This document shows positions 5,344-26,122 of a DNA stretch of 64,000 nt, one piece after another (within the stretch, counting starts at the first letter, position 1; each line of letters starts with the position of its first letter). Under the pieces are notes generated by a model that ran no database searches, was not told the DNA's origin, and was given only the letters and a program-made list of their open reading frames with translations. This DNA comes from Rhodothermales bacterium (GTDB lineage Bacteria > Bacteroidota > Rhodothermia > Rhodothermales > Bin80). The stretch spans positions 78,597-142,596 of the forward strand of contig CBDHCQ010000004.1 in the NCBI GenBank assembly GCA_965261255.1, written 5' to 3'. A program made the position numbers and the translations under genes.

Positions 5344-7197
5344 TCAGTTAGTGTTGGTTGCATCCACGAGAATGCGTGTCATGCGTGCGACGAATGCAGA
5401 AGGTTCTGAGAGGTTACCATCCATCAAGAGTGCTCCTTCGTACACTTGTTCGATAGCTTCCTCAACTAGGTTGCATTGTTTTTTCTCGGAATTCAGAGCC
5501 AGGATATTTTTCATGAGTGGGTGCTCCACATTGACTTCTAGGACCTTTCTTGCTCCCTCATAGTCTGGGTTCATGGATTTCATCATGCGCTCCATCTGCG
5601 GATCCATTCCATCTTTGGCTGTCACCAGTGTCGCAGCAGAATCCACTAGGCGTTTGGATGCAGCCACATCCTGTATCCGTTCACCTAACTGAACGCGAAA
5701 GAGCTTGAGGAGGGTATCGGTATCATCATCGGGCAGAGAGACCTCTTCAGAATCATCACCAAGATCAAGATCCGTCCCGGTGATACTCTTGAAAGACTTT
5801 CCTTCAAAGTCCTCCATGTTTGGCAACGTTAGTGTATCAACGGGGTCTGGAAGGAGTAATACTTCAATTCCCTTGCGAGCGAATACCTCGAGATGAGGAC
5901 TGGTGCGGGCGGATTCGAGGGAATCAGACAAGAGGTAGTATATGTTTTCCTGATCCTCCGGCATGCGCTCAACGTAGTCCTTGAGTGCTGTTAAGCTCCT
6001 GCCGTCTGGGTGGGTTGAATAGTAGCGCATGAGCTCCAGGAGCTCTTCGCGTCGGGCGTAGTCGCTCCAGAATCCAGCTTTGAGTATTCCCCCAAAGTTG
6101 CTAAAAAACTTGTCGTAAAGCCCCTCATTCTCTGAGGTCCAGTCCTTTAGAAGGCCGAGAATCTTGTTGGTGAGGGTAGAGCGGATTCGCTGGGCGGCAG
6201 GACTGTTCTGGGTAACCTCCCTGGATACATTCAGTGGAAGGTCATCCGTGTCCACTACCCCTTTTATGAACTGTAAGTAATCCGGCAACAACTCCTGCGC
6301 ATCGTCTCGTACGAATACTCCCGAGGAGTAAAGGTGGAGACCGCGTCGATTCTCTTCTTGGAAAAAGGGTGCGGAGGGCTGTGAGGGAACGAAAAGGAGT
6401 GCATCAAACGAAATCAGTCCCTCAATCTGCAGGTGTAAATGCCCGATAGGTTCCGAGTAATCGCCCGTCAGGAACTTGTAAAACTCGTTGCGCTCTTCAT
6501 CTGTGATGTCGTCCTTGCGTTTTCTCCAGAGCGCTTTGATGGTATTCGCCTGTTCGGAGCCCAGGATGATTGGGAAGTCCACAAAATTTGAGTATTTCCG
6601 AATTATTGACCGTACGCGAAGCTCCGTCGCAAAATCTTTGGTGTCCTCCTTTAAGTGCAATTTAATACTGGTTCCATGCTCACTACGTGTGCCCGGACTA
6701 ATTGTATAGGTGCCTGCACCATCGCTGCTCCAGCTCAATGATTCGGCTTCTTCGTCCGCATGCAGCGTTTCAATATCTATTTTATCGGCTACCATGAAAG
6801 CAGAATAGAAGCCCACGCCAAACTTTCCGATCATGTTGGCATCAACCTTTTTGCCGGCTGCTTTCTGCTCCTCAATAAAGGCCAGCGTACCGCTGCTTGC
6901 GACGGTTCCCAATCTATTGATCAGATCGTCGCGCGTCATACCAATCCCGGTGTCCTCTATGGACAGGGTATTGGCCTCCTCGTCCATAGTGATAGTAATC
7001 TGGAGGTTCGTTTTGTCACCTTCAGAGTGGTCAGTCAGTTGACGAATGCGGGCCTTGTTGAGTGCATCCGATGCATTGGAGATTAGTTCTCGCAAGAATA
7101 TCTCCTGGTTAGTGTAAAGCGAATTAACGATGAGATGCAGCAACTGCTGCATCTCGGCCTTGTATTCAAATTGTTGGGATTGTGTGGTTTCCGCCAT
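5344..7197 (-). CDS. htpG: molecular chaperone HtpG (Hsp90)
   Basis: FEYKAEMQQLLHLIVNSLYTNQEIFLRELISNASDALNK, then IGKFGVGFYSAFMVADK. Full-length 617 aa. Confidence 0.97.
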   Translation of the reverse strand: MAETTQSQQFEYKAEMQQLLHLIVNSLYTNQEIFLRELISNASDALNKARIRQLTDHSEGDKTNLQITITMDEEANTLSIEDTGIGMTRDDLINRLGTVASSGTLAFIEEQKAAGKKVDANMIGKFGVGFYSAFMVADKIDIETLHADEEAESLSWSSDGAGTYTISPGTRSEHGTSIKLHLKEDTKDFATELRVRSIIRKYSNFVDFPIILGSEQANTIKALWRKRKDDITDEERNEFYKFLTGDYSEPIGHLHLQIEGLISFDALLFVPSQPSAPFFQEENRRGLHLYSSGVFVRDDAQELLPDYLQFIKGVVDTDDLPLNVSREVTQNSPAAQRIRSTLTNKILGLLKDWTSENEGLYDKFFSNFGGILKAGFWSDYARREELLELMRYYSTHPDGRSLTALKDYVERMPEDQENIYYLLSDSLESARTSPHLEVFARKGIEVLLLPDPVDTLTLPNMEDFEGKSFKSITGTDLDLGDDSEEVSLPDDDTDTLLKLFRVQLGERIQDVAASKRLVDSAATLVTAKDGMDPQMERMMKSMNPDYEGARKVLEVNVEHPLMKNILALNSEKKQCNLVEEAIEQVYEGALLMDGNLSEPSAFVARMTRILVDATNTN

Positions 7198-12908: not shown

Positions 12909-14862
12909 CATTGTAGTGGATTTTTTTGCTGAGATTCCGTGCCCCCTATTTTCAAGGGATTCAAAAAGAGCTGTTTTAGGTTGTATTCTTACACTTCGGC
13001 GTTCTCTTTTGTAGGGCGTTTTGCCTTGATTCGCTGCGTATTCCGCCCCAGTTTGAGCCCCATTGCCTGAAAGACTTGACGCTGGAATGGCTTGAGATCC
13101 TAGTCTTGTTTGAGCGGGATCGCGTGCGTCTTATTTTGAGGAAACACGGTCGTCACGCGCTGGTGCTCGTTGAGTTTGACCTTGAGGGTGGCCCAGCTCT
13201 TGTGGATCTGTATTGCGCACAACCTGCTTCGAATCAGATGCACGACATGGAAGGCCAGGATGGACAGGAACAGATGGGCTTCAATCTGCTCATCCTTGCT
13301 GTGATAGATTGGGCGGAAGCCCAAGTCGGATTTCATCGTGCGGTAGGAGTGTTCAATTTCTCCCAACTGCCAGTATGTTCGCGCAAGATACTCACAGGAC
13401 CACTTCGCATGACTGGTACGCAGGACGTATCCGCCAAAGGCTTCGGTGCAGGCATCGTAGGCCGACCGACGCGTCAGGAGAATCTTTTCGGCGTGCGCTG
13501 GCTGGCCCTTTTTCTTCACAACTTTGACCTCGTAGTGATATCCGACCTGTTTGTACTTCTCCATGAGCCGTCCCTCCTTTCGCTCAATCACCGCATACGT
13601 CTTCGGACGTCGGGGCATCGTGAGCTCCTCGTTCAAGTGTGCAATGGCCGCTTCAAATTGGGCGCGCTTCGTGCTGATGATTTGATCGCTGACCGCCTGC
13701 CGGACCTCACTGTGTAGATACACCCGCCGCTCTCCATCATTTCCCCCCAAGCTTCCAGGCACGTACATACACCTCGTGAGTGGATTGAAAAACTTGATCC
13801 GGTTCCCGGTCCAGAACCGGGGGCGTCTTCGTGCGCTCTACACAGATCCAGTTCAATCCTTCTTCCCTCAAATACGCCAAATACGCCTCGGTTGCGATGC
13901 CCGCATCCATAATGACCGTTGGCTGGTCCCCGTTCAACTGTTCGATGGCCCTGCACAAAGTCTCCGGCTCACTCGCATTGCCGGGGAGAATTTCTGCGGT
14001 GCGCGGGAACCCCGAGGCATCAAGCGTCATCGCCAGCGTGACCAGCGGACAATCGTTGCGCTTGTCCTTGCTGCGCCCATAGCGCAAGCGCGCGCCTTTC
14101 TTGCGACCTGTGTAGTAGGTGTTGGTCAGATCATAGAACACGATCGTTTCCGTAAAACCCAATAAGGCCTGGGTGTTGCCAAAGAGTTCGTCAATAATCG
14201 TCTTCCGGTGCGCGTAGAGCCCAGCAGCAATGCGGTAGAGCGTCCGGTCACAGGGACGTTTGGCTTGGAGTAATTCCAGTATACAGGACCGTTCGCACAT
14301 CCAGTCGTAGGTTTGCCGCTCGCTCCCGGGAGAGAGCATTCGTCCCACGACCAGGGCGGTGGCCCAGTGAATCTGATCCCGGTTGAAGTTCAAGGTTTGC
14401 AGGATCTGGGTAAACCCCAGCAGATCCAGCGCTTTGAGCGCCACGCGCTCGCTGCCAATGGTTCGCGTGTCGGGATGATGGATTTCATTGGTGAGAATGG
14501 CATCCCGGTCATCCCGTGGATCATGGACATCATAGCCCTTGCGTTTGAGCTTCTCCATGATGTCCTGACTGGCCTGGTGAAGGACTTCATCTTCAAACGG
14601 CAGGCGCGCATGTCCGTGCAAGCCGTCGCGCACGAGTTGCATGAGCGTCGGCCATTGTTCTTTGGGGAGGTTGAAGTCTTTGCCGAGGTTGAGGAGGGTT
14701 CGTTGCCGGGGATTTCCGTGGACGCGATAGGATTCAACAGTGGAGTAGTAGACGACCTTTTTGCCGGATTTGAGGGTACGGGGTTTGGCATAGACATACA
14801 TGGTCGGGGTGGGGTAATTGGGGGTTGAACGGTGGGGTTGGCGAAAAAATCCCACTACATTG
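12909..14862 (-). mobile_element. IS1634-family-like insertion sequence (about 1.95 kb)
   Basis: Imperfect terminal inverted repeats: cattgtagtggatttttttgc at 12909-12929 versus the reverse complement of gcgaaaaaatcccactacattg at 14841-14862. They enclose the split transposase gene. Confidence 0.65.
13100..14801 (-). pseudogene. IS1634-family (IS4-like DDE) transposase, split by a 1-nt frameshift
   Basis: N-terminal part MYVYAKPRTLKSGKKVVYYSTVESYRVHGNPRQRTLLNLG (start at ATG 14801), C-terminal part ...YWQLGEIEHSYRTMKSDLGFRPIYH. The two ORFs overlap at 13737-13768, and the frame change maps to a C6 homopolymer at 13743-13748. Confidence 0.75.
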
Positions 14863-15008
14863 AGGGGTTTCGGCAAAACCATTCTATAAGGGCGTAATTT
14901 GCCCTAAATAGACCAATGTAACCCCGAAATCGGGGGTTCTTACCCCGAAAAACCCGAAATCAGGCCAAAAACTCAGACAGGATGGAATGGAAATACCGAA
15001 GTCGCGCC

Positions 15009-15397: not shown

Positions 15398-16309
15398 TTA
15401 TCCTCGGATTCGAGGAAGATTATCATGCTGAGTTTTCACAACATTGTCCGTGATCTCTCGCAACTCATCGTCGTCTAAAATACTAAGTTCCCTTGAAGCT
15501 TGAATTGAGCCGATTGCTTGACAGGCAGACCGTAGGCCCGCTCCCTTTCCTAATGGTGTGTTAGGCTTTCTTTCCAATAGCTCGGCCAGACTAAGGATGA
15601 ATGAGCTCCGAATTCTGTGTGAGCCAAGTACCGAATTCCGAGATACGACTAGCATTACCAAATTCTCCCAGTAAGCTTTATTTAATCGTAGAACCTCTCG
15701 GACTTTGCGCATAAGAACATGATCACCCCTTGAAACCTGCCTAACTAGATGTTCTCTCCACCAAGCTCGTGCGAAAGGGCAATCCACATAGACGGATCTA
15801 TTCCCCCGAGCTTCCTGCAAACCACCTAAGCGTCTAAGAATCGTTCGTACTCGACGATCAACCAACTCATTTCGCCTATCCCCCTGTCCCTTGAGGAGTG
15901 TTTTGATGTCCCGTGCACCATTAGAGTCTGGCTTTCCGCTTGCAGCCAAGTAAGAAGCTTGAATCAGGCCACTTTCAATATGACGAAGGGTAACAGTCGC
16001 CCAGAAAGTTGTCCTACACGCAATTCTGGGGGTAATGCTTAACCAAGCATTAAAAAGACTTTGTTCTGTATCTGTGGGAGGCTGCTTGAATTCACTCTCA
16101 GTCAAGGGAGTCGGGAGAAGAGTGATCGTCTTAGAGCCTGGTGTGAACTCCACAGAACTCATGATAAAATCAAGAAACCCCAGATTACTCTGGACTGCCT
16201 TGAGAAGTTCTAACTGTAGTTTGGAACCTTTCTTTTTGAGCAAATCTCTTCGCAGTTTCGAAAATGATTCATCCTGAAATTCTTCATAGCTATTATGTAC
16301 CATGCTCAC
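15398..16309 (-). CDS. hypothetical protein (303 aa), last gene of the five-gene operon
   Basis: Its ATG overlaps the upstream stop (ATGA at 16306-16309). Arg-rich and probably helical. I recognise no family motif. Confidence 0.7.
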   Translation of the reverse strand: MSMVHNSYEEFQDESFSKLRRDLLKKKGSKLQLELLKAVQSNLGFLDFIMSSVEFTPGSKTITLLPTPLTESEFKQPPTDTEQSLFNAWLSITPRIACRTTFWATVTLRHIESGLIQASYLAASGKPDSNGARDIKTLLKGQGDRRNELVDRRVRTILRRLGGLQEARGNRSVYVDCPFARAWWREHLVRQVSRGDHVLMRKVREVLRLNKAYWENLVMLVVSRNSVLGSHRIRSSFILSLAELLERKPNTPLGKGAGLRSACQAIGSIQASRELSILDDDELREITDNVVKTQHDNLPRIRG

Positions 16310-17154
16310 TCATCTTCTGATTGGTCCGGGATATCGTGAGGATACAATTTTGTAGCGACTTCCTCAGGGCGAAAATCAGGCTCGCTCCAGTGAGATAAAT
16401 TCTTCTGTTTTAGATGGTCGGCGAGGATGTCAAGGTTACGAGAGGATGATTCTCCACCATCATCGTCATTTTTAAACTCTCTTTGTAGGAAAGCAAAACA
16501 TGCCGTGACTATATTGGTCATTATGTGTGATCGTACACTCCCTTTTTTCTGAAGGAAGGAGTGGAGCTTTGGATTAAGACGGACCAAAAACCGAAAATCT
16601 TCTTCAGTCTGTGCACCAACATAAAACTCTCCGGGTCCCAATTCTTGATCAGGGTTTAGGGTTAGTAACTGCAGTATTGAGGAGGATCCAAACCGAATCA
16701 AGGTTCCGAGTGCAAGTCGACTTCCTTTCCTCAATGTTATCGTCTGGTTGTCCCAGATTTGATGGACACCGTCTTTTTTAGCATTCAGTCTGAGATCACG
16801 GTCGGGAACAGTACTGACTATCATTGGCGTGAGAATTGGGGGTTCGCCGAGATCGTCGCTATTCCAAGAGATACAATGTTCCTCGGTTTTCGATGTATAT
16901 GTTTTTCGATATGAGGATTTGGGGGATGAAACGGCGCAAACGTAGATCGCTTTGTTTTCTTGCAGTAAACGCGAAATCAGCGGAGCTCCTTCAATCCGAT
17001 GAGTGATAATGAACGAACACTTATCGTCGCCAGGCACACATTCGATGATGTATTTGCCTTTTGGAAAGGAGATATTACCAGACTCCAGTATTGGAAATCG
17101 TGGTGACCGAATAGCATTTGACGGCTCTGTCGAAGAAACGGAGAACTGGTACAT
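16306..17154 (-). CDS. hypothetical protein (282 aa), fourth gene of the operon
   Basis: Starts 25 nt after the GHKL gene stop. Acidic C-terminal tail (DIPDQSEDE). I recognise no family motif. Confidence 0.7.
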   Translation of the reverse strand: MYQFSVSSTEPSNAIRSPRFPILESGNISFPKGKYIIECVPGDDKCSFIITHRIEGAPLISRLLQENKAIYVCAVSSPKSSYRKTYTSKTEEHCISWNSDDLGEPPILTPMIVSTVPDRDLRLNAKKDGVHQIWDNQTITLRKGSRLALGTLIRFGSSSILQLLTLNPDQELGPGEFYVGAQTEEDFRFLVRLNPKLHSFLQKKGSVRSHIMTNIVTACFAFLQREFKNDDDGGESSSRNLDILADHLKQKNLSHWSEPDFRPEEVATKLYPHDIPDQSEDE

Positions 17155-17179
17155 TCTAACTATCTACCATCGAGCGCCA

Positions 17180-19114
17180 CTACCCCTTGTATATGTCTAC
17201 TCGGAGCGTTGGCTCGTGATCAGGAGGCAATATAAGGTTGTGGGGAAGAGAGTATTCTAAAACAATATCTAAGCTGTCACCAGATTCAATATTGCCAAGG
17301 TGGACGCCCGTAATCTGTTCATTTTCCTTAATGAGTTTCCTCTTATCAGCAGGTTTGTCGTCTATACGTACCTTTCTGAGAATGAGGGCTTTGGTATCAT
17401 TTCTCGAACGAAGGTCACACGTTGCATCTATATTTTGGTCCACGCACAAACGAAGTTGAGCGTCACTCAAACTACTGTGACATTCCACAACGACCCTCTG
17501 ACTATTTGTGTTAACTGCCACCGATGTTGCCGTAAACACAGGACCCAATTGGGGTTGGGGACGTGACTTAGTCGATTTTGAGGATTTCTTTTTGCCTTTT
17601 TTATGCGAGGGGCCTGGGCCCACATCTGATTCCGCGTAAGATTTGGAAGGAATGCGTTTGTCAATTGCCTCAGGACTTCCCCAGAAAGATGGGTAATTCG
17701 GGCCAGTTTCTCCTTCCCGTCCGAAATCTAGCGCAAGAAAGTCATCTGGGTTATATGACTCAGAGCTTATTTTCGGAGCTTTAGCTTTAAGCCATTCTTT
17801 AATTTTGCCAAAAGCGTTCCCCAATTCGCGCGCTTTGTCTTTCGATAGTCGTTGCTTGGGATGTAGTTCGTTGTGCAGCGGACCTTCGGCATTGCGCACA
17901 AACTCATGTAGCTTCCCGCCCGACTTTGAATTGAGCAATAAAACGGCATGAAAAGGTCGACGATCTGAAAATGCATACCGAAGCCTAGGAAGGTTGTTTG
18001 CGTCGGAAATCCACATGCCATTCCTATAAAGGTCAACTTGAGTCACGCCAGAAGCTGTAGAACCATACCGGACCTCTACGTCTCCAAGCTCTGTTGGTAT
18101 CGTGTGCTTCTCACCTTTTTGGAATGTGACATAAGCGGAATAGGCTCGGGATCCGCTGATGAAAGCCCCCGGCTTTTTTCTTTTATTTCCCCTTTCCTCC
18201 TCCAATACCTCTCTAAGTATTACGCGATCCAATATCAGCAGATCACCGGCATTATGCTTAAAGCGTAGATCTTCAAATTCAACAATGAGACGACCTTCAT
18301 GAATCGCTGGGAAGAAGTTGCGCGCAGCAGATTTAAAAACAAGATCCGAAAGTTTTTCTGGAGACTCTTTGAAATAATTGAATGCAGGGACAATTATGGC
18401 CGTCCCATGTCTCCAATTTTGCGTGATCCAATCCACATCCTGTGCGATGAGGAGAGGCAAATGCCGGTCGGTAGCACAGATGTGATGCCCTTTTTCCATT
18501 TTGTGAACCAAGAACCCATCCCCGGATCTTGGTTGTTCGTCGCCGTCTCGGATGCTCGAAGCGAGAACAGCGTGGCCTGAACCTATCCTTTCTCCCTTGA
18601 AGTTAACTCCACCATAGAGGATATAACGCAAGTTGGATGCAGGTATGATGGTCGAATGGCCATTACCATAGGTACCCATTGCATCTCTACCCTTAACGCT
18701 GATACCATCACCGAGTAAAGCCCTCATCCGAGAATCATCTAGGCCAATACCATTATCAAGGACTGACAAGACGTCCTGCTCACTCTGCCCTAGTGCTTTC
18801 CGTATGACCTCGACTACACGAGAAGCCTGGCTGCTAAGCTTTCCTCCTACACTTTTGTGAGTCTCCACAGCACATTCGAAAGTATCCTTGTATTCCTGAA
18901 TGCCAGGAATTCCTTCATTCTTACAGCGAGTAAGACGAAATCTTATTTTGGCCGACTTAACGCCTGCTTCGATGGCTGCATCAAGAGAATTCTGCACTAA
19001 CTCTCGAACGATTGCCGAGGGTCGGAGGTCACTGAATCCAGAGATTCCAGACGGGGTAAATCCCCTGGAAGATCCAGGAAAAAACCGTAGCTTCGGTAGA
19101 GCATTATTGGTCAT
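17180..19114 (-). CDS. GHKL-superfamily ATPase (Bergerat fold), 644 aa, with a long non-catalytic C-terminal region
   Basis: N-box ELVQNSLDA (aa 38-46), G1 box LDNGIGLD (aa 119-126), G2 box GTYGNGHS (aa 147-154). Lys/Ser-rich linker PSHKKGKKKSSKSTKSRPQPQ. The start overlaps the desulfurase stop by 11 nt. Confidence 0.85.
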   Translation of the reverse strand: MTNNALPKLRFFPGSSRGFTPSGISGFSDLRPSAIVRELVQNSLDAAIEAGVKSAKIRFRLTRCKNEGIPGIQEYKDTFECAVETHKSVGGKLSSQASRVVEVIRKALGQSEQDVLSVLDNGIGLDDSRMRALLGDGISVKGRDAMGTYGNGHSTIIPASNLRYILYGGVNFKGERIGSGHAVLASSIRDGDEQPRSGDGFLVHKMEKGHHICATDRHLPLLIAQDVDWITQNWRHGTAIIVPAFNYFKESPEKLSDLVFKSAARNFFPAIHEGRLIVEFEDLRFKHNAGDLLILDRVILREVLEEERGNKRKKPGAFISGSRAYSAYVTFQKGEKHTIPTELGDVEVRYGSTASGVTQVDLYRNGMWISDANNLPRLRYAFSDRRPFHAVLLLNSKSGGKLHEFVRNAEGPLHNELHPKQRLSKDKARELGNAFGKIKEWLKAKAPKISSESYNPDDFLALDFGREGETGPNYPSFWGSPEAIDKRIPSKSYAESDVGPGPSHKKGKKKSSKSTKSRPQPQLGPVFTATSVAVNTNSQRVVVECHSSLSDAQLRLCVDQNIDATCDLRSRNDTKALILRKVRIDDKPADKRKLIKENEQITGVHLGNIESGDSLDIVLEYSLPHNLILPPDHEPTLRVDIYKG

Positions 19115-20276
19115 GGACCATAAAGTTTATGCGGTTAATTTCAGAGAAAGCGGCAATCGCAACATCTATTTCTTCATCGCTGGTAAATCGACCCAAACTT
19201 ACACGAAATCCCGATTCAGCGACCTCTGGCTTTAGGCCCAGTGCGAGTAAGACCCTTGATGGCCGCGTGCTTCCTGACGAACAAGCAGCCCCCGTAGATA
19301 TAGCTAATTTATCTGAAACCGTTTCAATTACCTGGTGAGCGAGGATCCCAGGAAAACTAAGACTCAGATTCCCGGCCACACGATGATTGGGATGACCAAA
19401 AAGTCGGATACTGGAACAGATCTGCTGAAGCCCGTCTCGGAGACGCAAAGTAAGCCGTAACATTCGGGCCGAATCCTGAGGCCATTCATTTGCGGCTATC
19501 TGGCATGCTTTTCCAAAGCCAGCAACCAAACCGACAGGAATGGTACCAGGCCTTAGGCCATTCTCCTGTCCGCCTCCAGTAAAGATAGGTTCTATTGGCG
19601 TACCGCTTCGGACAAATAGTGCCCCGATCCCTTTCGGGCCATATACCTTGTGAGCGGAAAGGCTAAGCATGTCAACACCCCACGAATCAATATCAATATT
19701 GATTCGCCCGGCTGCTTGTGTCGCGTCCGTATGAAATAACGTATTATTAGCACGACACAGAGCGCCGATGTCACTCAGTGGCTGAATGACACCGATCTCG
19801 TTATTTACCGCCATGATCGTGACTAAGGCAGTACGTTCGCTCAAAGCACGTTCTAAATCGGCGAGGTTAACCAGTCCATCTTTATCTACAGGCAACACGG
19901 TAATTTCAAATCCCATGTGTCCCAAGTCGTGAACTGTATCCAAGACAGCCGAATGTTCCGTGGTGATGGTAACAAGCTGATCTCTATGACTGTTCCTGAA
20001 GGCTTTTGCAATACCACGTATGGCCAAGTTACAAGACTCGGTAGCTCCCGAAGTAAAAATAATCTCTTCATCGTCCGCTCCGATAAAATCTGCGATTTGC
20101 CCACGTGCTAACTGTACTGCGTCAAAAGCTTCCCAGCCGTATGCATGGTCTATTGAGTGTGAATTCCCAAAGCTAATCTCGAAATAAGGCCGGACCGCTT
20201 CCAGTACACGGGGATCAATGGGGGTAGTCGCTTGGTAGTCTAAATACACCTGACGTGATGCCGCGTGCTGAATCAT
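19104..20276 (-). CDS. NifS/IscS-type cysteine desulfurase (DndA/SspA-like by context)
   Basis: YLDYQATTPIDPRVLEAV, FTSGATESCNLAIRG, PLP-lysine motif SAHKVYGPKGIGALFVR, catalytic Cys loop STGAACSSGS. The ATG at 20276 forms an ATGA overlap with the upstream stop. The ORF track's TTG at 20285 is an alternative start. Confidence 0.93.
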   Translation of the reverse strand: MIQHAASRQVYLDYQATTPIDPRVLEAVRPYFEISFGNSHSIDHAYGWEAFDAVQLARGQIADFIGADDEEIIFTSGATESCNLAIRGIAKAFRNSHRDQLVTITTEHSAVLDTVHDLGHMGFEITVLPVDKDGLVNLADLERALSERTALVTIMAVNNEIGVIQPLSDIGALCRANNTLFHTDATQAAGRINIDIDSWGVDMLSLSAHKVYGPKGIGALFVRSGTPIEPIFTGGGQENGLRPGTIPVGLVAGFGKACQIAANEWPQDSARMLRLTLRLRDGLQQICSSIRLFGHPNHRVAGNLSLSFPGILAHQVIETVSDKLAISTGAACSSGSTRPSRVLLALGLKPEVAESGFRVSLGRFTSDEEIDVAIAAFSEINRINFMVHDQ

Positions 20277-21628
20277 TCGGTACAATCACAGGGAAGTAAA
20301 GTGCTGGAGTATTTTTTTAGATTTGGTTCATCAGCTGTTGATAAGAGCCTGTAAGAAAAATCAGTTTCTGTACCGAAGAAGCCAATGACGGTATTCGCTA
20401 GATTACTCTTGATTTTTCGTTTTTCGGCCACCAGGTCTCGGCCATACTTTTCTTCCATCTTGATCCACCAAGCTATATCAGAGGGAGTTCCGAGAAGTGT
20501 TCCAAATCCGGGCACTTTGTCATTTTTCTCTTTCTCCATACTCTCACGAACATTCCGTAAGTTTGAAACACCTTTTAAAAAACAATAGACGCAGTTTGAA
20601 AGACTTCCTTGTTGGGGTAGCGAAAGGTCCCAAGGTTGCTGATCCCAAAAAGCATTTACATTCTTTCGGGTAATTCCCAGATCTGCCAAGGGCATATAGA
20701 CATGCTCTCCGGTATATCCTGAAGCCCCCGGACCAGAGTTTCTGGCGAAAACGCGGCGAACCCGAAGTTGCTCATCGCCCCTAAGTCCCACAAATGCAAT
20801 ATACTCAACTCCATCTTTTCCGAACAAAGTCTGTTTTTCGGATGTCTTGGCTGCTAGTTTAGAATTTTCAAATGGTCGCCAAGAGGAGGAATAATCAATG
20901 TATCTTTGTTCTGGACGGAAATATGGTCGAGACAAAACAAAAGCTTTTTTTTTCGCGAAAATACTTTTCGGAACTCCGCCACGATGCCGTAGATGACGAC
21001 GATACATTGAATCAAGATCTATCCTAGAACGATTCCCATAGTGGCCCAGCCGTGGGATTGATTCCCGTCCGACCAACCAGTCTTTCAAGAACATGCGTGT
21101 TGTTTCCAATTTCATATTTGCAGTGCAAATCCGAGAGAACTGGTTTGGAACGTAGCCTGACCAAGAAAGAAGCTCTTCAAATACTTCTCCGCGCCAGTGG
21201 AATCCATCTTGATTCTGGCTTGAACGTGGACGCTCGTTCACAATACGGTAGGTCGGCAGGCGAGTCCATTCGCCATTTCGGGCATCTTCGTAAGTTTGAA
21301 ACTCAATCCAAAAAAACGGTATCCCGTACCGAGTTGAGGCATCCTTGCAGTCTCTTGCAAATCGGTATGTTTCCGGGTGTTCAGAAGATGTATTGTTAAA
21401 AATAATAACATCACCCCGATCTTGATCTAAGATCTTATTCGCCAGAAGCGTAAAAAGTAGCATTCCGCTGGTACGACCACCTGAAAACTTCACGATGTGA
21501 GGCAGATCCTGATGGTGTTTGGCACGATACCGGAGAAGGTGCATATTCGAACCTCCAACAGAATTCCGGGATTGGCCTCGGGTTTGAATTACAAGGTGAG
21601 GTACGGAACGCAATGGTCTAGAGAGCAT
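20273..21628 (-). CDS. PAPS-reductase-family PP-loop ATP pyrophosphatase (DndC/SspD-like by context)
   Basis: PP-loop KFSGGRTSGMLL (nt 21467-21484). Cys motifs SNCVYCFLKG and C-terminal LLPCDCTE. First gene of the operon. An alternative start is the ATG at 21544 (MHLLRYRAKHH). Confidence 0.85.
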   Translation of the reverse strand: MLSRPLRSVPHLVIQTRGQSRNSVGGSNMHLLRYRAKHHQDLPHIVKFSGGRTSGMLLFTLLANKILDQDRGDVIIFNNTSSEHPETYRFARDCKDASTRYGIPFFWIEFQTYEDARNGEWTRLPTYRIVNERPRSSQNQDGFHWRGEVFEELLSWSGYVPNQFSRICTANMKLETTRMFLKDWLVGRESIPRLGHYGNRSRIDLDSMYRRHLRHRGGVPKSIFAKKKAFVLSRPYFRPEQRYIDYSSSWRPFENSKLAAKTSEKQTLFGKDGVEYIAFVGLRGDEQLRVRRVFARNSGPGASGYTGEHVYMPLADLGITRKNVNAFWDQQPWDLSLPQQGSLSNCVYCFLKGVSNLRNVRESMEKEKNDKVPGFGTLLGTPSDIAWWIKMEEKYGRDLVAEKRKIKSNLANTVIGFFGTETDFSYRLLSTADEPNLKKYSSTLLPCDCTE

Positions 21629-22077: not shown

Positions 22078-22464
22078 CTACTGCCACTCTTCCACTTTCG
22101 TTATCGTGACTTCCTCACCATCAATGGAGCCATGAAATGACAATCTCACATCCAAACGTTTGAACTTCTGCAGAAAATCCTGAAAGGATAGCTCGAGAGA
22201 GAGTTTCTTTAGAGGTATCGGTTTGCCCTCCAGACGGGCATCATTCATGTTCCGGCCGCCTTGGCCCTCAAAAATGAATACTGATAGAGACGCACTCTTT
22301 TCCACCCGATAGTACTGAATCCCACACACCACATCGTCTTCACCGAGTTTGCCTTCCTTCTGAAGCCACGACCTAATGTCTTCTTTGACATAATCATCCG
22401 CAGCGACGGTTCCTTTCCAGTCATCGTACTGCACGTTGGCTACAAATCCTTCTGTGCATTCCAT
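22078..22464 (-). CDS. hypothetical small acidic protein (128 aa)
   Basis: Clean ORF with an ATG and no competing long ORF. Same strand as the five-gene operon and 450 nt upstream of it. No recognisable motif. Confidence 0.45.
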   Translation of the reverse strand: MECTEGFVANVQYDDWKGTVAADDYVKEDIRSWLQKEGKLGEDDVVCGIQYYRVEKSASLSVFIFEGQGGRNMNDARLEGKPIPLKKLSLELSFQDFLQKFKRLDVRLSFHGSIDGEEVTITKVEEWQ

Positions 22465-24960: not shown

Positions 24961-26122
24961 GGAAACTCTGATTTATGTTGGCGAAACTCACTATGTTACG
25001 ACATCCAGATATCAATGATCAACGTGCCATGAGACAACTCACTTTCGAGGACGTCACCTACCTCAACCGTTCGCGCAAGACGCGCAGGCAGCGTTTTCTG
25101 GAAAGGATGGATCGTGTTCTGCCATGGGATACCTTCCTGGCCATACTGAAGCCGTACTACCCCAAAGGCGAAAGGGGGCGTCCTCCAATTCCCTTGGAGA
25201 CGATGCTGCGTATTTACTTTATGCAGCAGTGGTTCGATTTGTCAGACCCGGCAGCGGAAGACGCGGTCCATGATATTTTTCCGATTCGGATGTTTGCGAA
25301 GGTGCAACCGGGCTATGCGCCGGATGAGACGACGATCTGCAAGTTCCGGCACTGGCTGGAGGAGCATGGACTGACGAAGCAGTTATTACGGGTCAGCAGT
25401 CGGCATCTCGAGAAGCACAAGATCCTGGTGCGAGAAGGCACGATCGTGGATGCCACCATTATTGCGGCGCCATCGTCAACCAAGAACAAGGAGCGCAAGC
25501 GCGATCCAGAGATGGCCTCCACGAAGAAGGGCAACACCTGGCATTTCGGTATGAAGGCGCATGTGGGTACAGATACGCAAGGGTTGGTGCATACGGTGGA
25601 GACGAGCGCAGCCAATGTGCATGACTCGGAGATGATGTCGGCGTGTCTGCACGGTGAGGAGGAGGTGATCTACGGGGACAAGGGCTATGTGAGCGAAGCC
25701 GGAAAGACCCAAGCGGAAGCCTGCGGGGTGACTTGGCGTGTATTGCGCAAGGCCACCCGAAAGCGCAAGCTCAACTGCGCGGACCAATCCTTCAACCGCA
25801 AGAGTAGTCGGACCCGGGCCAGAGTCGAACATGTCTTTGGCGTGATCAAGCACCAGTGGGGCTTCCGCAAGGTTCGCTACCGAGGGTTGGAGAAGAACAC
25901 AGCCCAACTGTACACGCTCTTTGCGCTTGCCAACTTCCATATGGCCGGCGACCGATTACTGGCCTTACAGGGATAGGTATGCCCTGTAAGCACAGATAGG
26001 GTACTTTGGGCCTTCTTCCCGAACTGTTTTACCAGAATTCAGACCAAAATCGCACATCAGAGGCACCACTAAACCCATTTTGGACTGGATTTGCAAATAA
26101 CATCGCGTTGATCAGACCTTCC
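24961..26122 (+). mobile_element. IS5-family insertion sequence (1162 bp) with 4-bp TTAA target duplication
   Basis: The left end ggaaactctgattta and the reverse complement of the right end ggaaggtctgatcaa match at about 12 of the first 17 positions. TTAA lies at 24957-24960 and again at 26123-26126. Confidence 0.8.
25029..25976 (+). CDS. IS5-family DDE transposase
   Basis: MRQLTFEDVTYLNRSRKTRRQRFLERMDRVLPW...GRPPIPLETMLRIYFMQQWFDLSD...IVDATIIAAPSS...YGDKGY. Intact frame. Start at ATG 25029. Confidence 0.92.
   Translation: MRQLTFEDVTYLNRSRKTRRQRFLERMDRVLPWDTFLAILKPYYPKGERGRPPIPLETMLRIYFMQQWFDLSDPAAEDAVHDIFPIRMFAKVQPGYAPDETTICKFRHWLEEHGLTKQLLRVSSRHLEKHKILVREGTIVDATIIAAPSSTKNKERKRDPEMASTKKGNTWHFGMKAHVGTDTQGLVHTVETSAANVHDSEMMSACLHGEEEVIYGDKGYVSEAGKTQAEACGVTWRVLRKATRKRKLNCADQSFNRKSSRTRARVEHVFGVIKHQWGFRKVRYRGLEKNTAQLYTLFALANFHMAGDRLLALQG

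Follow-up and report, generated by a model that had tools for sequence, protein, structure and literature searches.

Synthesis of DNA phosphorothioates by the Dnd, Ssp and type 4 BREX (BREX-4) systems relies on a PAPS-reductase-type protein together with a nucleoside triphosphatase (NTPase) (PMC12914056). The writers described in the literature examined here combine a PAPS-reductase-type enzyme with a P-loop ATPase, the exception being the single-gene TdpC (PMC12914056); SspC and DndD are both P-loop ATPases, and SspC is related to BrxC (PMC12914056, PMC12839542). Ssp is a single-strand phosphorothioation writer with SspE or SspFGH as readers, and Dnd is a double-strand system that occurs with DndFGH or PbeABCD. 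Here we describe a gene cassette in a 64,000-nucleotide stretch of DNA from a Rhodothermales bacterium (contig CBDHCQ010000004.1, positions 78,597 to 142,596; this whole stretch is called the window) in which the ATPase is of the GHKL (Bergerat-fold) type. The cassette comprises gene D for a PP-loop enzyme, gene A for a cysteine desulfurase, the GHKL ATPase gene, and genes B and C. We put the probability at roughly 55% that the GHKL protein acts as a DNA clamp, dimerising and gated by ATP, within a new DNA-modification machine of the phosphorothioation type.

The system resembles Ssp and Dnd in its parts list, but it departs from both in its ATPase and in its DNA-binding or nicking subunit. 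As in Ssp, a dedicated desulfurase (best model SspA), a PAPS-reductase-type enzyme (best model SspD), one ATPase and accessory protein(s) are encoded in one operon. The cassette ATPase is a GHKL protein, whereas SspC is a BrxC-like P-loop protein; the cassette also lacks DUF4007/SspB, and its B and C (DUF6339) proteins have no detectable relation to Ssp proteins. With Dnd it shares a desulfurase, a PP-loop enzyme and, as predicted for the cassette, the logic of an ATP-gated, dimerising, DNA-scanning ATPase, but it is without DndD (an ABC/SMC-type ATPase), DndE (a ribbon-helix-helix protein) and DndB. The presence of a PAPS-reductase-type candidate DNA sulfur writer in a defence system recalls BREX-4 and Tdp. 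The BREX-4 proteins BrxC, PglZ, BrxL and DUF4007 are missing, however, and whereas TdpC writes alone, the cassette D gene was never seen without GHKL, B and C where the flanking sequence sufficed.

Sequence and predicted structure of the GHKL ATPase

The ATPase gene (17180..19114, minus strand) encodes 644 amino acids from an ATG start. All of the elements that define the GHKL superfamily were found, i.e. ExxxNxxD, DxGxG, the GxxGxG of the ATP lid, and G-T. The first three reside in the boxes ELVQNSLDA (residues 38-46; window 18977-19003), DNGIGL (residues 120-125; 18740-18757) and GTYGNGHS (residues 147-154; 18653-18676), and motif IV is H236-G237-T238. Conservation was assessed in an alignment of 25 full-length homologues with 42-68% identity. 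Residues E38, N42, D45, D120, N121, G122 and G124 were invariant, as were G147, G150, N151, G152 and H153; in motif IV G237 was invariant and H236 and T238 varied. As these residues are invariant down to 42% identity, the Bergerat motifs are beyond chance, in agreement with an initial annotation of the sequence that had read the gene as encoding an intact GHKL ATPase. The family is large: thresholds of E≤1e-3 and E≤1e-30 gave 2356 and 442 cluster representatives, respectively.

An AlphaFold2 model of the protein (mean pLDDT 71.5) was compared with the PDB using Foldseek. The alignment defines a conserved N-terminal arm (residues 1-30), which has many invariant positions although the model of the monomer shows no structure there; a strap exchanged between subunits would be expected to have this pattern. 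The arm is followed by the Bergerat ATP-binding core (residues ~30-250; window 18365-19027), in which the ATP lid was modelled with low confidence, and by a confidently modelled alpha/beta domain that is transducer-like and ends in a long helix (residues ~255-450; 17765-18352). A disordered Lys/Ser/Pro linker (residues 453-523; 17546-17758) includes the Lys/Ser-rich segment PSHKKGKKKSSKSTKSRPQPQ (residues 502-522; 17549-17611) and leads into a C-terminal beta-sandwich (residues 524-644; 17183-17545) with a conserved DATCD motif and beta strands across residues 527-643 (pLDDT about 80-89). The Lys/Ser-rich linker and the beta-rich C-terminal module had both been recognised in the initial annotation, and both were recovered here. 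The region after the ATP-binding boxes, in which it had recognised no kinase, gyrase, MutL or Hsp90 motifs over about 480 residues, has more features than it described, as the second domain is discernible at the fold level.

Foldseek returned 104 matches at E≤0.001, and the 50 best listed were all GHKL ATPase modules. Topoisomerase VI-B was the best (3e-10), followed by ParE/GyrB 43K fragments, MORC2/3/4 and SMCHD1, with E-values for these ATPase modules ranging from 3e-10 to 1e-6. Alignments to two-domain ATPase fragments extended over 450-560 columns, but the TM-scores were 0.3-0.48. None of the lysines in the second domain was invariant among the 25 homologues, so that no counterpart of the transducer lysine was identified; R364 and H414 were invariant instead. 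A transducer-like second domain appears to be present at the level of fold only: the check for an S5-fold transducer proposed in the initial annotation showed a candidate domain, with low TM-scores and no invariant lysine. We predict from the motifs and the model that the protein is a catalytically competent two-domain ATPase of the DNA-clamp class. A Walker A motif is absent from all five proteins of the cassette, which leaves the GHKL protein as its sole ATPase besides the PP-loop enzyme.

A contig from run X3 (sponge metagenome) follows the window through gene B and the final ~50 codons of the GHKL gene (window 16132-17328) and diverges at position 17328. The depth of this contig was higher, 19.9x compared to 7.5x, which points to a second strain in the sample whose GHKL protein differs in its C-terminal region.

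Genes of the cassette

Gene D (20273..21628, minus strand) encodes a 451-residue, divergent PAPS-reductase-type PP-loop ATP pyrophosphatase. The PP-loop SGGRTS occupies residues 49-54, a large insert separates it from the second motif, and the protein ends in LPCDCT[DE]. Cysteines 94, 168, 346, 349, 447 and 449 are all invariant or nearly so in the family. The window protein matched Pfam PAPS_reduct weakly (0.0029, below threshold), and 10 of 16 family members matched this model. Among the PADLOC models, SspD was matched by all 16 members (best 1.3e-10), BrxP by 15, a likeness to BREX-4, and DndC by just 4, a difference from Dnd. A sequence-profile search of the PDB gave no meaningful match, and no tRNA-thiolation family was matched in NCBIfam or Pfam. 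Gene D presumably encodes the sulfur-inserting enzyme.

Gene A (19104..20285, minus strand; 393 residues as listed) encodes a class-V pyridoxal phosphate (PLP)-dependent cysteine desulfurase of the IscS/NifS/DndA/SspA type. Its likely start is an ATG three codons in, which overlaps the stop codon of D as ATGA. The PLP lysine motif SAHK (residues 210-213) and the catalytic cysteine loop GAACSS (residues 332-337) are present. The protein matched Pfam Aminotran_5 at 1.6e-77 and its best PADLOC models, SspA and DndA, at 7e-143 and 1.7e-141; matches to the NCBIfam IscS and DndA models were both under the equivalog cut-offs.

Gene B (16306..17154, minus strand) encodes 282 residues with no known domain. 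None of 17 family members examined had a Pfam match at E≤0.1, and the best match among PDB sequences was to unrelated proteins (E 0.016). The invariant residues include Y35, H52, C73 and R83, and no acidic residue is invariant. Gene C (15398..16309, minus strand) encodes a 303-residue protein that probably belongs to the DUF6339 family. The window protein scored 21.5 bits against DUF6339 (PF19866; cut-off 23.2), 13 of 17 relatives matched (best 8.7e-9), and PF19866 is also the precomputed annotation of most homologues in the database. The C protein is all-alpha and rich in invariant Arg, Trp and Glu. Its AlphaFold model is confident (pLDDT 91, pTM 0.88), and Foldseek found no PDB counterpart for it (best E 1.6); a sequence-profile search of the PDB likewise gave nothing meaningful. 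Neither B nor C matched DndE, SspB or DUF4007, the only matches of the two proteins being PDC-M33B/C and DUF6339.

The D/A, A/GHKL and B/C junctions overlap stop-to-start, and 25 nt separate the GHKL gene from B. From this arrangement the five genes are predicted to form one translationally coupled operon.

Conservation of the cassette

A genome scan with one genome per species identified 177 confirmed relatives, the best 80 loci of which were kept for counts, and the presence of partners was scored by tblastn with the five window proteins. The 80 loci span at least ten phyla or classes, with sources that include Dehalococcoidia, Bryobacterales, Latescibacterota, Alpha- and Gammaproteobacteria, Longimicrobiales, Spirochaetia, Binatia and Verrucomicrobiae, and many of the relatives bear sponge-symbiont taxon names. 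The order D-A-GHKL-B-C was kept almost throughout. D was detected at 78 of the 80 loci, B at 77, C at 75 and A at 67; most absences fell at contig ends. A reverse search from D in metagenome contigs yielded 71 loci, and GHKL, B and C were present in all of those with enough flanking sequence, in the orders D-A-GHKL-B-C, GHKL-B-C-D(-A) and D-GHKL-B-C. Over ~100 loci D, GHKL, B and C have diverged from their window counterparts in close correlation with one another (rho 0.85-0.93), and the desulfurase less tightly so (rho 0.65-0.79); these values were measured against one reference only, and joint transfer would produce such a correlation for any set of genes.

As linkage was observed in both directions and divergence was correlated, we conclude that D, GHKL, B and C are a co-inherited core. 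The GHKL protein would be an obligate subunit of a system of four genes, D, GHKL, B and C, with A as an optional fifth. By analogy with Dnd and BREX-4, in which housekeeping IscS substitutes for the desulfurase (PMC12839542), A is probably dispensable. These results also bear on several points raised in the initial annotation. It had pointed to the ATPase as a possible partner of DndA/DndC-type enzymes, and the context kept in both directions supports this; it had allowed that homologues might occur mostly outside sulfur-enzyme contexts, and nearly all of the loci carry D. The flanking genes that it had called orphans proved to include the conserved partners B and C. Chance adjacency of the GHKL and sulfur genes was accordingly rejected on the basis of the 78 of 80 contexts, the reverse search and the divergence correlation.

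Several individual loci depart from the common arrangement. One locus (L059) has an intact GHKL-B-C set and no D found within 8 kb. In three others (L049, L058 and L068) extra DNA between the desulfurase and GHKL genes was considered as a source of added system genes and proved to be insertion sequence (IS) transposase sequence. A Longimicrobiales locus (L031, 5393-17401) carries tandem cassettes, D-A-GHKL-B-C followed by D-GHKL-B-C without a desulfurase, which may be two writers of different specificity. In locus L061 (9929-17146) the GHKL gene is followed by two open reading frames (ORFs) of B/C size (289 and 293 residues) with no Pfam match, then by a GmrSD_N protein, and only afterwards by recognisable B and C genes, to which the best B/C matches correspond; the two ORFs may represent a B/C pair that was replaced or has diverged strongly.

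The closest relative (L081, on a 159-kb contig) is 93% identical to the window copy and has as neighbours a gene for a TonB-dependent receptor with a CarboxypepD_reg domain and ABC-transporter genes like those of the window. The type of receptor suggests a Bacteroidota-like host. The window sequence itself occurs in public runs labelled sponge metagenome. Carriage by phages was also considered, and no relative was found among the 2.9 million viral contigs of IMG/VR.

Relation to characterised ATPase families

The possibility that the GHKL protein belongs to a known family (SspC, DndD, MutL, GyrB/ParE, Hsp90, histidine kinase or MORC/paraMORC), or lies beside the sulfur genes by chance, retains almost no weight in our view. 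The shared Bergerat motifs and the fold-level similarity are what it has in its favour, and nothing else was found. Against Pfam, including HATPase_c and HATPase_c_3, the protein had no match at E≤0.01; NCBIfam gave only a sub-threshold match to sacsin-N; and no PADLOC model for SspC, DndD or BrxC was matched at E≤0.01. A profile search of PDB sequences detected marginal motif-I/II similarity to MutL and MORC3 (E ~0.4; MORC3 0.39). On these results membership by sequence in the MutL, GyrB, Hsp90, histidine kinase and MORC families was rejected, consistent with the statement in the initial annotation that no subfamily could be recognised; no full-length match to a characterised family was obtained. 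SspC and DndD are P-loop proteins (PMC12914056), whereas the GHKL protein is without Walker A. Identity with SspC, which the initial annotation had singled out as a point to check, was rejected on this ground and on the silence of the PADLOC SspC model. The conservation of context in 78 of 80 loci and the reverse search from D speak against chance adjacency. As far as sequence and context can tell, this explanation is already refuted.

A second GHKL protein of the window, an HtpG/Hsp90 chaperone (5344-7197, minus strand, 617 residues), served as a positive control. This true Hsp90 hits HtpG (PDB 2iop) at 1.6e-142, which the GHKL protein of the cassette does not, and the two proteins have no significant similarity (BLASTP E 0.67). 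The chaperone is a housekeeping protein unrelated to the cassette ATPase.

Compared with two-domain GHKL ATPases (topoisomerase VI-B, GyrB/ParE 43K, MutL, MORC/SMCHD1 and paraMORC), the protein shows all four motifs in its Bergerat core, to which it adds an alpha/beta domain that ends in a long helix; a conserved N-terminal arm and a DNA-handling context are shared as well. It differs from them in failing to match Pfam HATPase_c or HATPase_c_3 and in its PDB profile E-value of ~0.4. No Toprim or Spo11 partner, MutL C-terminal nuclease, CW module or coiled-coil module accompanies it, and the Lys/Ser linker and beta-sandwich C-terminal domain are unique to the window protein in this comparison. 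Assignment to MORC or paraMORC was considered and rejected: the sequence similarity required for it was lacking, and the partners are sulfur enzymes, B and C, not a methylase, helicase or nuclease. The MORC-like affinity mentioned in the initial annotation thus stands at the level of fold, as seen with Foldseek, and fails at the level of sequence.

A distant match is PDC-M33, an unvalidated candidate defence system of three genes in PADLOC. The GHKL protein matched PDC-M33A at 1.5e-31 (107.8 bits; residues 14-452 aligned with model positions 13-411 of 627, or 63%), gene B matched PDC-M33B at 1.9e-7 (28.7 bits) and gene C matched PDC-M33C at 0.0029 (15.1 bits). The three window proteins therefore match its three models in the same gene order, but the matches are weak and partial, and PADLOC gives PDC-M33 no PP-loop component. 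The three D-linked subtypes are equally distant from PDC-M33 (50-124 bits), and by these scores PDC-M33 is probably a sister group, not the GHKL protein's own family.

Modules adjoining the cassette

Clustering of all ORFs of the 80 loci revealed a partner module abutting the cassette in 55 of them, mostly in the same direction. At 32 of the 80 loci the module is a GmrSD_N/DUF262 protein of ~600 residues (Pfam 2.7e-21) with a DGQQR motif and a C-terminal His-rich region, encoded after C or between D and GHKL. The phosphorothioate-sensing nickase SspE has the same domain layout (PMC9646914), a further likeness to Ssp. The differences are that this partner misses the PADLOC SspE model and that D lies at ~1e-10 from the SspD model.

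Approximately 20 of the 80 loci carry instead a PbeA-like PLD/helicase gene, which is usually contiguous and co-directional with the cassette. Its product matched PADLOC PbeA at 4e-158 and TIGR04095 ('DNA phosphorothioation system restriction enzyme') at 327 bits, below the cut-off. These loci also encode a sigma-70 region 4 helix-turn-helix protein, and 15 loci encode a protein matching TIGR04096 ('DNA phosphorothioation-associated putative methyltransferase') at 577 bits against a cut-off of 150; at one locus (L011, 11749-17485) the TIGR04096 and PbeA-like genes are contiguous and co-directional with the cassette. The PbeA-like and TIGR04096 neighbours are a likeness to Dnd. SspFGH was considered as the identity of this module and rejected, as SspFGH is described differently (Walker A, FtsK-like) from the PbeA-like, TIGR04096 and helix-turn-helix proteins. 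A 767-residue AAA_23/SMC_N protein is encoded between the PbeA-like gene and GHKL at another locus (L063, 4920-7223, plus strand). PbeC has been described as SMC-like (PMC6459918), and by analogy this locus may hold a fuller Pbe set.

No partner module was found at the window locus or in its closest relative, and 25 of the 80 loci likewise are without one. This parallels Ssp, in which orphan writers are common, 84% of sspBCD modules being without a restriction partner (PMC8092258).

The GC content of the cassette is 46.3%, compared with 51.9% in the rest of the window, and IS remnants flank it on both sides. Directly downstream of gene C, where many relatives hold a restriction-type partner module, lie the two overlapping ORFs of an IS1634-family transposase (13100..14882, minus strand; NCBIfam transpos_IS1634, 1.8e-45). 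Read depth over this element was about 33x in run X1, ~4-fold that of the flanks (8.7x), and it is therefore a multicopy IS; the closest relative lacks the insertion. The transposase is a boundary and lies outside the system. Upstream of the cassette a second DDE transposase is encoded at 24975-25976 (plus strand). A 128-residue ORF upstream of D (22078-22464, minus strand) has no family match and is kept only in the closest relatives (L081 and L082). It had the best metatranscriptome coverage of the region and falls outside the conserved cassette.

Proposed mechanism and alternative explanations

We propose that a cysteine desulfurase, either A or, at loci that lack A, housekeeping IscS, would draw sulfur from cysteine as a persulfide. 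The D protein would activate the target with ATP at its PP-loop and pass on the sulfur via its six conserved cysteines, which might act as a relay, hold an Fe-S cluster, or both. The GHKL protein would dimerise on ATP through its N-terminal arm and close on DNA, standing in for DndD, SspC or BrxC, the P-loop ATPases of the known systems, and together with B and C, with which it would presumably form a complex, would select or prepare the site. GHKL, B and C would thereby fill the place beside the PP-loop enzyme that is occupied by DndD/DndE or SspC/SspB. The mark would most likely be a backbone phosphorothioate, and would be read by interchangeable partners, either the PbeA-like, TIGR04096 and helix-turn-helix proteins or the GmrSD/SspE-like DUF262 protein. 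We favour this clamp-writer mechanism because the GHKL protein is the only ATPase beside the PP-loop enzyme, because D never occurs without GHKL where the flank suffices and the genes are translationally coupled, because separate reader or restriction modules sit outside the cassette, and because an NTPase is required by the known writers, Tdp excepted (PMC12914056).

Several findings weigh against this mechanism. We infer phosphorothioate chemistry from homology, the D matches being weak (1e-10 at best), and from neighbouring genes; PbeAC also pairs with methyltransferases or stands alone (PMC6459918), and Pbe neighbours are for this reason no proof of phosphorothioate. The C protein has no structural relative, and neither B nor C points to a role. 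The transducer assignment depends on Foldseek alignment lengths, with low TM-scores (0.3-0.48) and no invariant lysine. Although short sponge metatranscriptome contigs on C, A and D are weak evidence that the cassette is transcribed, no such contig covers the GHKL gene itself. Finally, TdpC makes phosphorothioate alone (PMC12914056), and by analogy D and the desulfurase alone might suffice, GHKL-B-C being something else; the absence of a PP-loop model from the PDC-M33 triad hints at triads that work without a sulfur enzyme.

The last of these considerations leads to the main rival explanation, which we judge unlikely, at about one-half the weight of the clamp-writer mechanism: D and the desulfurase would be the whole writer, as TdpC is, and GHKL-B-C would be a reader or effector arm, restriction-like or abortive, that detects whether or not the sulfur mark is there and directs its action at foreign DNA. 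The sufficiency of TdpC for phosphorothioate synthesis (PMC12914056) and the weak matches of all three proteins to a candidate defence triad without a PP-loop model are consistent with such an arm. GHKL/MORC-like ATPases are known to accompany restriction-modification loci, as the initial annotation had noted (see also PMC8011034), and locus L059 has the triad with no D within 8 kb. No nuclease motif or fold was found in B or C, however; B has no invariant acidic residue and C no PDB match, and 55 of the 80 loci already own a separate partner module outside the cassette. D was never without GHKL-B-C given enough flank, whereas the writers of known systems often lack restriction genes, and here all of the genes lie in one translationally coupled operon. 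A different sulfur chemistry, i.e. thiolation of a DNA nucleobase or of RNA, tRNA included, or a route to a small molecule that contains sulfur, is the less probable of the two alternatives and to us rather improbable; the phosphorothioate-linked neighbours would then be mere defence-island company. The great divergence of D, with its sub-threshold PAPS_reduct match, lack of a PDB sequence match and large insert, would accommodate this chemistry, as would the facts that pairs of PP-loop enzyme and desulfurase also make thiolated tRNA bases (PMC12914056) and that PbeAC pairs with other modifications too (PMC6459918). Yet the D family matches only SspD, BrxP and DndC, with no tRNA-thiolation family among its NCBIfam or Pfam matches, and the ATPase comes from a DNA-handling fold class. 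The TIGR04096 and PbeA-like genes at locus L011 (11749-17485) are contiguous and co-directional with the cassette, and the low GC content and IS flanks are typical of defence islands.

Implications

A search of the accessible literature found no description of the system, no work linking phosphorothioation with GHKL, MORC, HATPase or Bergerat proteins and no mention of PDC-M33 or DUF6339; GHKL and MORC are absent from the comparative-genomics papers examined, which deal with Dnd, BREX and phosphorothioation in the gut. A recent survey aimed at finding further phosphorothioation systems demanded a P-loop neighbour (PMC12914056), and was for that reason blind to the present cassette. We consider it an even proposition that the cassette, which is widespread in sponge symbionts and marine bacteria, represents a further independent solution to writing sulfur into DNA, in which a GHKL clamp with B and C (DUF6339) replaces the P-loop ATPase and DNA-binding subunits. 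In a more radical version, the mark might be a sulfur modification chemically unlike canonical phosphorothioate.

Xiong et al. reported that dnd genes were missing for 320 of 553 PbeAC modules (PMC6459918), and Horn et al. called the DNA phosphorothioation systems of sponge metagenomes 'not functionally complete' (PMC5099237). The cassette may be the missing writer for some of these 'solitary' Pbe modules and 'incomplete' sponge-metagenome systems. If the clamp-writer mechanism is correct, ATPases of unrelated fold could replace one another as the ATP-gated DNA-handling subunit of such machines. DUF6339, a second unannotated family (B) and the large GHKL family would each gain a function, and the related candidate PDC-M33 a first functional lead. 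Enzymatic labelling of DNA with phosphorothioate might gain a further sequence specificity. The cassette could then account for orphan Pbe-type restriction modules and explain in part why sponge microbiomes have so unusually rich a defence repertoire.

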